Below, in pieces: positions 35,428 through 36,305 of a stretch of 64,000 bases of DNA. Numbering within the stretch: the stretch's first letter is position 1; every line of letters begins with the position of its first letter. Under the pieces are notes generated by a model. The model had not been told where the DNA came from, ran no database searches, and saw nothing but the letters and a program-made list of their open reading frames with translations. A program made the position numbers and the translations under genes. Source of the DNA: Candidatus Lloydbacteria bacterium CG22_combo_CG10-13_8_21_14_all_47_15 (lineage in GTDB: Bacteria; Patescibacteriota; Minisyncoccia; Phycocordibacterales; 21-14-all-47-15); contig PCTL01000001.1 of the NCBI GenBank assembly GCA_002771515.1, positions 7,995 to 71,994 of the forward strand, in the 5' to 3' direction.

Positions 35428-35504
35428 GAATAAAGGTTTTTAGCGGTTTTAAGCGTATATTTAGCTATTTAGCGCACATAATAATTTGGATGTTATACCT
35501 TAAT

Positions 35505-35532
35505 ATAGAACACCATATATAGAACACCATAA
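35505..35532 (+). repeat. tandem direct repeat 2 x 14 nt (ATAGAACACCATAw)
   Basis: atagaacaccatat followed immediately by atagaacaccataa. Confidence 0.7.
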
Positions 35533-35573
35533 TATATACCGCGCCGATGGGTAGTGCCTGGCGTGGCGTATTA

Positions 35574-35602
35574 TTGACTTTTTCTGATTATTTCATTAAT
35601 AT
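35574..35602 (+). promoter_or_regulatory. promoter-like element TTGACT-17-TAATAT inside the long non-coding region
   Basis: ttgact at 35574-79, a 17-nt spacer, and taatat at 35597-602. No ORF follows for about 700 nt. Confidence 0.4.
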
Positions 35603-36164
35603 TGGAAAGATACGGAATTGGGAGGAAGGTACAGTCCGAAGCAGTTTGCTGAACAGTATCTGATCTGTCAACAAAGAAATCCGCTGATATTTTTCGCCGC
35701 CGTTAATGCGTCGTGAGTTATCCACAAAGACATTTTGCGAGCAGTTTGATCGCATACTATAATTAAAAGTAATTACCGAACGGAGTTTTTGTGGACTCTG
35801 CAGAGAACGGATTGAGCGGATACATTTTGTTGTTCTGGAAACGGAGTGATAATACCGAAATACAGGCGCGATGCGCTCGTTGAAAACGCAATATGGACGA
35901 TATTAAGTTGTACGGCTGTTTTTGTTTTGCATGTCTATAGCTTCATCAGTATTGAAAAAGAAATTAGAAAACTTATTCAATGTGACCTTTAACCGAAAGA
36001 ATTTTATTTATTAACAGAAACGCAACACAGCTTTCACAATTATTTTATTTTCGTCGGTTTGTTTTTCCGCTTTGCCTCGCGGTGCACTCGGTTGGGCAAG
36101 GTGGGGAAACGAACTGACGAGCTCAGTTTGTCCCTCAAAAATGGGGAGTCGATGACGACAAATA

Positions 36165-36189
36165 AATAAGCTGTGATAATAAGCTGTGA
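36165..36189 (+). repeat. tandem direct repeat 2 x 12 nt (AATAAGCTGTGA), about 120 nt upstream of the giant surface-protein gene
   Basis: aataagctgtga-t-aataagctgtga. Confidence 0.7.
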
Positions 36190-36305
36190 CGATGGTGTGC
36201 GGTACGGTGCGTGGAAAAATTCGCGATGCCGGCTGTGTACCATTAACAATTAGTTGTGTTCCGTATTTATTGTGCGGGACGGAATTAATTATCAATTAAC
36301 CATTT

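Follow-up and report, generated by a model that had tools for sequence, protein, structure and literature searches.

Why should a streamlined genome leave 878 nucleotides (nt) of DNA without a gene in front of the gene for a 1214-amino-acid (aa) secreted protein? The genome is that of Candidatus Lloydbacteria bacterium CG22_combo_CG10-13_8_21_14_all_47_15 (Parcubacteria/Patescibacteria; GenBank assembly GCA_002771515.1), and the window, as we call the whole stretch that was analysed, is 64,000 nt of its contig PCTL01000001.1 (positions 7,995 to 71,994 of the forward strand). The gap runs from the stop codon of a 271-aa protein gene, at 35427, to the ATG of the 1214-aa protein gene, at 36306. 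A sequence-only reading had picked it out for a promoter-like element, two tandem repeats, a perfect DnaA box, AT-rich tracts and hairpins, all of which we found there. It had offered three explanations: a large structured noncoding RNA (ncRNA), a complex regulatory region for the surface-protein gene, or something like a replication origin. The second is the one we would back. The gap probably serves a major surface (S-layer-like) protein gene as its cis-regulatory region and as a 5′ leader of unusual length, with control exercised not through the direct repeats, as had been suggested, but through a pair of promoters, a DnaA box, a boxA of the ribosomal RNA (rRNA) type and a long hairpin. It is a deeply conserved control region in which known mechanisms come together in a new arrangement. 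The searchable literature, including searches that paired TTATCCACA with Patescibacteria and the DnaA box with S-layers, held no prior description of it.

Is the gap truly empty of genes? Four public contigs are identical across the region, and none of the public gene calls falls inside it. The closest relative (locus L005) aligns to it at 74% identity over 571 positions; 10 of the 12 gaps in that alignment are not multiples of 3, the mismatches have no 3-periodicity (52/54/42), and tblastx matches between the two spread over all frames. Indel lengths, absent codon periodicity and all-frame matches are our grounds for rejecting a hidden gene. That this is the longest stretch of the window free of open reading frames (ORFs) is effectively correct as well, the sole comparable gap (15798-16674, 877 nt) holding a pair of small genes with a terminator. 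Around the 878-nt gap lies ordinary chromosome, with a transfer-messenger RNA (tmRNA), two tRNAs, a type IV pilus cluster, LigA, RecA and FtsK. After FtsK the order is the 271-aa gene (+), the gap, the 1214-aa secreted-protein gene (+) and a TPR gene.

We found relatives for synteny through homologues of the 271-aa protein (27-50% identity), which were traced to their contigs. All six keep the order FtsK (-), the 271-aa-type gene (+), which encodes a winged helix-turn-helix (wHTH) protein, a gap of 490-813 nt, a gene for a surface protein of ~1200 aa (+) and the TPR gene; four further relatives, found by protein homology alone, have the same arrangement. The seven syntenic gaps (window plus six relatives) make up our alignment A1, with a mean column identity of 44%. 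Its conserved blocks are ATTGACTTTTT...TGGTATAAT, which is the upstream promoter P1; GTTATCCACA followed after 5-7 nt by TTTTGC and after another 18-19 nt by TATAAT; TTGAAAAnnnAATA, the core of boxA; a long palindromic block; and the start, ATGAGTA. Invariant across A1 are TTATCCACA, TTTTGC, TATAAT (invariant or nearly so), TTGAAAAnnnAATA and ATGAGTA. When the gap was compared with all loci by blastn, L005 alone aligned, and beyond L005 it is only these short motifs that can be compared.

A scan of GTDB, one genome per species, with the pattern TTATCCACA-N5-7-TTTTGC-N18-19-TATAMT gave at least 119 matches, nearly all in Patescibacteria, where by our own estimate chance would give ~3. Among the 119 matches listed, the next large ORF is a homologue of the window's surface protein in 85 (starting 194-911 nt downstream of the module, median 405), and 93 have the wHTH gene as their immediate upstream neighbour, in the same orientation; of the loci left over, several end at a contig edge. 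The order of wHTH gene, P1, DnaA box with the downstream promoter P2, boxA, long hairpin and surface-protein gene recurs in all 11 of the loci found independently of the motif, and in at least 85 of the 119 Patescibacteria matches listed.

Let me take the elements in the order in which a polymerase would meet them. P1 is the TTGACT-17-TAATAT element of the sequence-only reading, present just as claimed. The accompanying remark that no gene follows it was mistaken: P1 is conserved as the upstream half of a tandem pair serving the 36306 gene. Promoter-like sites in the region are no more frequent than chance would have them (10 against 6.5 ± 2.4 expected), and a consensus match alone would not be significant; P1 matters because it is conserved. 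Its block is kept in six of the seven syntenic loci. Of 93 loci, 38 have its -35 element, as TTGACTT, in the spacer that separates the wHTH gene from the box, and none has it there on the reverse strand; a complete P1-like promoter is found in 30 of the 93, with one on the reverse strand. P2 lies downstream of the box, and its transcript would start near 35770. Among the 119 matches listed, the box is followed by TTTTGC after 7 nt in 53, 6 nt in 42 and 5 nt in 24, and TTTTGC by TATAMT after 19 nt in 97 and 18 nt in 22; the scan pattern admitted only 5-7 and 18-19 nt, and the independent support for a box at a fixed position relative to the promoter core elements comes from the syntenic loci, where seven of seven fall inside the same ranges.

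The box itself, reported near 35715, is indeed a perfect 9-mer, and it matches the universal DnaA-box consensus (PMC8203912). The window has four perfect copies of TTATCCACA against 0.42 expected, a number that none of 100 shuffles reaches. In the 11 motif-independent loci, ten boxes are perfect and one reads TTTTCCACA: the seven syntenic loci are invariant, and the four added by protein homology supply three perfect boxes and the variant. Flanks in the pattern loci extend the motif to aGTTATCCACA. The window's three further copies lie at 24795-24803 (+), 49588-49596 (+) and 17377-17385 (-), and the genes downstream of them encode the major pilin (24936), SecA (50016) and ComFC (16675-17394, -), possibly an envelope regulon. 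In other genomes, the box-plus-promoter module precedes mraZ in three species (L077, L119 and L128, with a MraZ of 146-148 aa) and a LexA-like gene, a fusion, in L029/L050; in L120 a perfect TTATCCACA stands 129 nt upstream of ftsK; extra perfect boxes also precede other surface-protein genes; and 22 of 26 additional copies are intergenic. None of the 120 leaders of 16S rRNA genes listed in a search described below has TTATCCACA upstream, so the box is not a generic feature of strong promoters.

What binds it? DnaA is the most likely candidate, since the box matches the DnaA consensus exactly, with the wHTH protein, or the two acting jointly, as alternatives. The possibility to take most seriously, although we doubt it, is that TTATCCACA is the operator of the adjacent four-helix-bundle/wHTH protein, which would be a dedicated regulator of the surface-protein gene and a small envelope regulon, the rest of the architecture being unchanged. 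Regulators are commonly encoded beside their target, and this one is immediately upstream in the 93 of 119 listed matches and in 11 of 11 unbiased loci; strict synteny and a near-invariant C-terminal motif fit a dedicated regulator. The recognition region (SEKTLQRDL...GERRWSRY) is nearly invariant, as expected for the reader of an invariant DNA site, and in L080 a perfect box even precedes the wHTH gene itself. By our arithmetic, however, the odds that a conserved 9-mer picked at random coincides with the universal DnaA consensus, read either way round, are about 1 in 130,000. The natural variant TTTTCCACA is a change that the classical DnaA consensus tolerates, and known DnaA regulons (PMC8203912) look much like the set of other targets (mraZ, ftsK, LexA-like). 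Moreover, if DnaA recognises its usual box in these organisms, it would bind here anyway.

Three other sightings of boxes are worth recording. At the pilin gene, the spacing from the box to TTTTGT and TATAAA is the same as at P2. A one-mismatch box, TTTTCCACA, lies at 34422-34430 (-), ~50 nt upstream of the ftsK start and inside an imperfect tandem repeat (34419-34442). Just 3′ of the predicted P2 start, TGTGGACTC (35787-35795) is an inverted sequence that resembles a DnaA box at 7 of 9 positions; it is complementary to part of the upstream box region and is conserved in L005 only.

Downstream of P2 comes boxA. The regular expression TTGA[ACT]A[AG]-N2-4-AAT finds it in 58 of 92 leaders, 14-205 nt after the P2 -10 element, compared with 14 leaders on the reverse strand. 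Positions that the expression does not require are conserved in these instances too (G at -5 and C at -2, 97% each, and A at +13), and the full leader motif is G-W-W-C-N-TTGA-M-AA-N3-AATA. At a threshold of 14 bits, boxA cast as a position weight matrix is found on the plus strand of 66 of 85 leaders, on the minus strand of none of the 85 and at 4 sites elsewhere in 1.79 Mb; the matrix was trained on the leaders it scored, and what is free of circularity is the strand asymmetry, the rarity elsewhere and the 16S set. At 12 bits or more, its sole match in the 64-kb window is at 35870-35899 (21.3 bits).

Where else does such a motif occur? GCTCGTTGAAA agrees at 9 of 11 positions with the published gamma-proteobacterial boxA consensus, GYTCTTTAANA (PMC5725501), and because of that resemblance we searched upstream of 16S rRNA. 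The pattern TTGAMAA-N3-AATA-N40-70-TTTGATCMTGGCTCAG, which places the motif 40-70 nt upstream of 16S rRNA, matched at least 120 metagenome loci. Among the 120 matches listed, the unselected G(-5) is present in 99% and C(-2) in 96%, and the consensus reads tTGyTCTTTGAAAACTaAATAGtG, usually 10-30 nt after a TTGACA...TATAAT promoter. Within it, GYTCTTTGAAAA is one position off GYTCTTTAANA (PMC5725501). The match between surface-leader and 16S-leader motifs spans ~19 positions. Four rRNA loci (L152, L186, L193 and L205) carry GGAAGAACCTTGAAAATTGAATAAG or close variants, and the surface-protein leaders L012, L040, L048 and L067 hardly differ from GGAAGAACCTTGAAAATTGAATAAG; we call the four rRNA loci Candidate Phyla Radiation (CPR)-like, a taxonomy taken from rRNA organisation alone (protein genes and tRNAs lie between 16S and 23S, and the 23S has a LAGLIDADG intron). 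In L152 and L186, the genes lying between 16S and 23S are an MscS-like gene, a tRNA-editing-domain gene and tRNAs, and there are LAGLIDADG and group-II-intron insertions, an arrangement of rRNA genes that is typical of the CPR.

We conclude that the surface-protein leader appears to carry the lineage's rRNA boxA, as judged from the rRNA leaders of other genomes. There is no rRNA gene in the window or in the related loci, and the literature turned up no relevant published Gram-positive boxA strings. The element lies downstream of a promoter, on what would be the transcribed strand, in an untranslated leader, and binding of NusB/NusE with antitermination is what its likeness to the rRNA element suggests. 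Might it do the reverse? We think it unlikely that this boxA-like element is negative, with Nus factors repressing translation or causing termination as at suhB, or that it is a DNA operator that merely resembles boxA. Nus factors at boxA do repress E. coli suhB, and opposite regulatory outcomes are possible; the suhB-type boxA, however, lies within ~50 nt of the start codon (PMC5725501), and here it is hundreds of nt upstream. An oriented DNA site would account for the strand specificity equally well. Neither idea sits easily with a position 14-205 nt after the promoter, as in rRNA leaders, or with a match of ~19 positions to the 16S-leader motif.

The third element is RNA structure. The hairpins that had been reported in the region are there, the main one within 36030-36140 (-46.8 kcal/mol, z = -5.5). 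It is kept in five related loci, with apical insertions of variable length. The sequence-only reading had proposed comparing relatives for covariation, and across these five loci the hairpin does covary: 8 of 30 pairs are changed on both sides, which 0 of 500 shuffles reach, and 88.7% of its cells are paired, a share that drops to 41-60% with the partner slid. Invariant G-U pairs, of which there are several, point to a structure of the plus-strand RNA. A covariance model agrees, scoring 72-87 bits on the plus strand and 24-40 on the minus, a difference of ~45 bits. The best local fold over 84 leaders averages -36.8 kcal/mol, compared with -24.8 for shuffles (median z about -4), and on inspection the other leaders have helices of 20-35 bp of unrelated sequence.

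Part of the ncRNA explanation thus survives. A long, structured, strand-specific RNA from the internal promoter is very likely, as a leader or 5′ untranslated region (UTR) and not as an RNA gene of its own, because the RNA would carry an antitermination signal and run into the gene. An independent structured ncRNA gene, starting at P1 or P2 and stopping short of the surface-protein gene, perhaps at the long hairpin, strikes us as quite improbable. The conserved promoter and the strand-specific, covarying hairpin would suit it, and in L008 and L013 T-runs do follow the hairpin by a few nt; in the window, however, there is no U-tract after the hairpin and no terminator ahead of the gene. Apart from boxA, the sequence from promoter to ATG is unconserved beyond the nearest relative, no separate conserved promoter lies between hairpin and ATG, and a processive-antitermination signal argues for read-through. 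The Rfam search that had been proposed brought no family at the gathering threshold in the window, none at a permissive threshold in the gap and none in 16 related loci, the best permissive matches in the gap being eukaryotic miRNA models at 25 bits (cut-offs 80-90).

How exceptional is a leader of this length? Many genes of the window have a TATAAT-like -10 element ~12 nt before the ATG (for example 17417-17441, 56915-56939 and 58389-58413), and a Shine-Dalgarno-like sequence is found in 4 of 38. The pattern implies that leaderless or near-leaderless mRNAs are probably widespread in this genome. Since most genes here have the -10 element ~12 nt from the ATG, a leader of ~540 nt stands out. 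Ahead of the ATG, most of the leaders have A/T-rich ATTATTAG/AATTAA motifs.

That leaves the repeats and the origin. The two tandem repeats are present, and they are the top-scoring pair in the window; the 14-nt repeat begins at 35503, and the 12-nt repeat has a period of 13, not 12 as reported. They had been put forward as iterons or response-regulator sites controlling the gene, which we regard as very improbable, strong as they are. The stretch of the 14-nt repeat cannot be aligned to any of the six syntenic relatives and has no blastn match; L005 has a single copy at the position aligned to the 12-nt repeat. Neither duplication is thus found in the closest relative, and no repeat family is common to the seven loci. 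Because they are missing or single-copy there, both look like recent duplications, without comparative support as binding sites. The TAGAAC-containing repeats in the equivalent spacer of L256 are a point in favour of repeats as sites. Tandem repeats of TAGAACT/AAACTC fill that spacer, which follows the wHTH gene (gap 1-170, locus 839-1010). TAGAAC is part of the window's 14-nt repeat too, by coincidence or as a site that is weakly conserved.

A replication origin, or a DnaA-titrating or -reactivating locus (oriC-, datA- or DARS-like), is the least credible of all, for although the box is perfect and invariant, the tracts A/T-rich and the intergenic length unusual, the gap has that one box and no others with up to one mismatch where oriC has a cluster, GC skew keeps its positive sign over the full 64 kb and does not inflect at 35.7 kb, no DnaA-family domain turned up among the window's predicted proteins of at least 150 aa scanned against Pfam, and the box is promoter-linked in every relative, held at a fixed distance from the -35/-10 pair in >100 genomes.

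How, then, might the region work as control region and leader? Two tandem sigma-70-type promoters, P1 and P2, would fire toward the surface-protein gene. The single perfect box between them, abutting the P2 -35 element, would most likely bind DnaA as a transcription factor, so that the cell would make its envelope protein according to its replication or cell-cycle status. Some 110 nt of the P2 transcript would precede boxA, where NusB/NusE (with NusA/NusG) would be loaded onto RNA polymerase. As in rRNA operons, this could keep the polymerase from terminating too early while it crosses ~540 nt of leader (~700 nt from P1) and then the 3.6-kb gene. The 28-bp hairpin would probably serve RNase III as a processing site, stabilise the mRNA as a 5′ structure, or do both, a role of processing or stabilisation that we assign with low confidence. 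Translation would begin from an A/T-rich start without a Shine-Dalgarno sequence, and a strong terminator would end the monocistronic unit.

Several points count against this account, and they are best put side by side. One DnaA box makes a weak case for control by DnaA, the relaxed consensus TTWTNCACA shows no enrichment in the window (9 against 6.1 expected), and the always-adjacent wHTH protein is an obvious alternative binder. The 119 pattern loci were selected by an exact pattern, and the invariance of the box is circular there; the unbiased set is the 11 protein-homology loci. To this must be added the self-training of the boxA matrix and the borrowed rRNA leaders, both described above, together with the repression that boxA can mediate at suhB. 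Our covariance model of the hairpin (R1) found no homologous hairpin beyond its five training loci, and the RNase III role is a guess from helix length. That the 1214-aa protein is an S-layer or major envelope protein is putative, its PG_binding_1 match being below the cut-off and its PDB and NCBIfam searches empty. Finally, we infer from sequence the start sites, the read-through, the binding of DnaA and of NusB/NusE, the direction of DnaA control, whether activation or repression, RNase III cleavage and high expression.

A bolder proposal, which we put forward tentatively, is that DnaA is a master regulator in Patescibacteria. Through perfect TTATCCACA boxes just upstream of promoters it would couple envelope and division genes (S-layer-like protein, pilin, SecA, ComFC, mraZ, ftsK) to replication. 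The major surface-protein mRNA would be transcribed with the rRNA antitermination machinery by way of the leader boxA, and the four-helix-bundle/wHTH protein, specific to the phylum, would be a third, locus-linked component.

Table 1. Features of the surface-protein control region and its flanks (window coordinates)
Feature	Position	Strand	Remarks
271-aa protein gene	34612-35427	+	N-terminal four-helix bundle, disordered linker, C-terminal wHTH; candidate regulator
Non-coding region upstream of surface-protein gene	35428-36305		878 nt
14-nt perfect tandem duplication, ATATAGAACACCAT x2	35503-35530		Lineage-specific
Promoter P1, TTGACT-17-TAATAT	35574-35602	+	9/12 consensus positions; upstream member of tandem pair
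Perfect DnaA box, TTATCCACA	35718-35726	+	3′ end 8 nt before P2 -35; downstream of P1
Promoter P2, -35 TTGCGA, 17-nt spacer, -10 TATAAT	35735-35763	+	10/12 consensus positions
rrn-type boxA, GCTCGTTGAAAACGCAATA	35875-35893	+	In leader RNA; predicted NusB/NusE loading site; absent from the sequence-only reading
Long RNA hairpin	36050-36121	+	~28 bp, nearly uninterrupted; candidate RNase III site or mRNA stabiliser
12-nt repeat, AATAAGCTGTGA x2, period 13	36165-36176 and 36178-36189		Lineage-specific duplication
A/T-rich translation-initiation region without Shine-Dalgarno	36238-36305	+	Near-identical in L005
1214-aa secreted surface-protein gene	36306-39950	+	Signal peptide, coiled coil, peptidoglycan-binding-like domain, long beta-rich region
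Strong intrinsic terminator	39997-40029	+	15-bp stem and T-run; closes monocistronic unit

The neighbouring proteins say a little about themselves. The 271-aa protein is identical to a hypothetical protein in a Candidatus Lloydbacteria metagenome-assembled genome from Crystal Geyser. It has no Pfam match and weak NCBIfam matches, to a four-helix-bundle family in its N-terminal part and to a FucR/GlpR-type HTH at its C terminus. Its AlphaFold model is confident (predicted local distance difference test, pLDDT, >90) for residues 25-132 and 197-262. With Foldseek, the bundle matches 2gsc/2rld, the fold of the 23S-rRNA-IVS or 'S23' protein, and the C terminus matches wHTH domains of the BlaI/MecI/Fur type. 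In the 1214-aa protein, PG_binding_1 is found at residues 83-131 with E = 1.8e-4, just under the Pfam cut-off; a PDB sequence search and NCBIfam gave no informative match. Parcubacteria do have an apparent S-layer by cryo-electron microscopy (bioRxiv 10.1101/2022.04.20.488981). Beyond the surface-protein gene, a TTG-start ORF for the TPR protein (39978-40922) overlaps the terminator, so its true start is probably further downstream.

Elsewhere in the window, the gap at 15798-16674 consists of two small convergent ORFs that flank a bidirectional terminator at 16308-16341, and its minus-strand ORF has the look of a glutaredoxin or thioredoxin, with a CPYC motif. The tmRNA (212-595, -) has the tag peptide AKNAIKSPFMAMNGLAFARA, which ends in ...ARA instead of the usual ...LAA. 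A tRNA-Ile with the anticodon TAT (UAU) lies at 7032-7103 (-). Reading of AUA by a UAU tRNA-Ile is uncommon in bacteria, most of which use a lysidine-modified CAU tRNA.

Why does any of this matter? The ultrasmall Patescibacteria (the CPR) make up a large share of bacterial diversity and have few transcription factors, and to our knowledge almost nothing is known of their gene regulation. Here is a concrete, testable regulatory module, present in >100 species before what is probably their most abundant envelope protein. It suggests that antitermination of the rRNA style, through boxA, may serve a protein-coding mRNA, and that a candidate DnaA regulon may connect replication with surface, pilus, secretion and division genes. 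As a set of strong native promoter and leader parts, the module could be useful to the emerging genetics of Patescibacteria. And in a streamlined genome with hardly any leaders, an intergenic stretch that is long and seemingly 'empty' would be functional control at the level of RNA, neither junk nor origin.

How does the module compare with systems we already know? Long envelope-biogenesis operons are subject to processive antitermination through RfaH and ops/JUMPStart, through LoaP, and through the EAR element of the B. subtilis eps operon. The common feature would be a leader-encoded signal that makes RNA polymerase termination-resistant for cell-surface genes, with the difference that a NusG paralogue or the EAR RNA acts there, and boxA with NusB/E here. 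Another such system is the rRNA antitermination leader (boxB-boxA-boxC; NusB/NusE/NusA/NusG/SuhB). It has the same motif before 16S, 1-2 of 11 positions off GYTCTTTAANA (PMC5725501), and the same placement of boxA shortly after a promoter in a long untranslated RNA, and the long helix that follows boxA in our leader, perfect in its pairing, is reminiscent of the stems that RNase III cuts in rRNA operons. Outside rRNA, boxA protects the untranslated transcripts of CRISPR arrays (PMC7665894). Unlike its uses in rRNA, suhB and CRISPR arrays, boxA here would belong to a protein-coding surface mRNA, is phylum-wide in Patescibacteria and is joined to a DnaA-box promoter.

The DnaA side has its parallels too. 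In E. coli, a consensus TTATCCACA likewise sits between two tandem promoters, dnaAp1 and dnaAp2, and in B. subtilis DnaA binds the promoter of ftsL, in the mraZ operon (PMC8203912), much as boxes precede the division genes mraZ and ftsK in our related genomes. What differs from the DnaA-regulated promoters of both organisms is the presumed target, an envelope structural gene, and the single box at a fixed -35 spacing. The last comparison is with S-layer genes, for which tandem promoters and long stabilising 5′ UTRs are known (PMC3666127). With Lactobacillus slpA and its like, our locus has in common a pair of promoters, a leader that is both long and structured, and a monocistronic unit closed by a strong terminator (PMC3666127), S-layer formation being putative here. 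Unlike leaders of the slpA type, this one would be several-fold longer (~540-700 nt), with a boxA and a ~28-bp helix in place of a 5′-terminal stabiliser.

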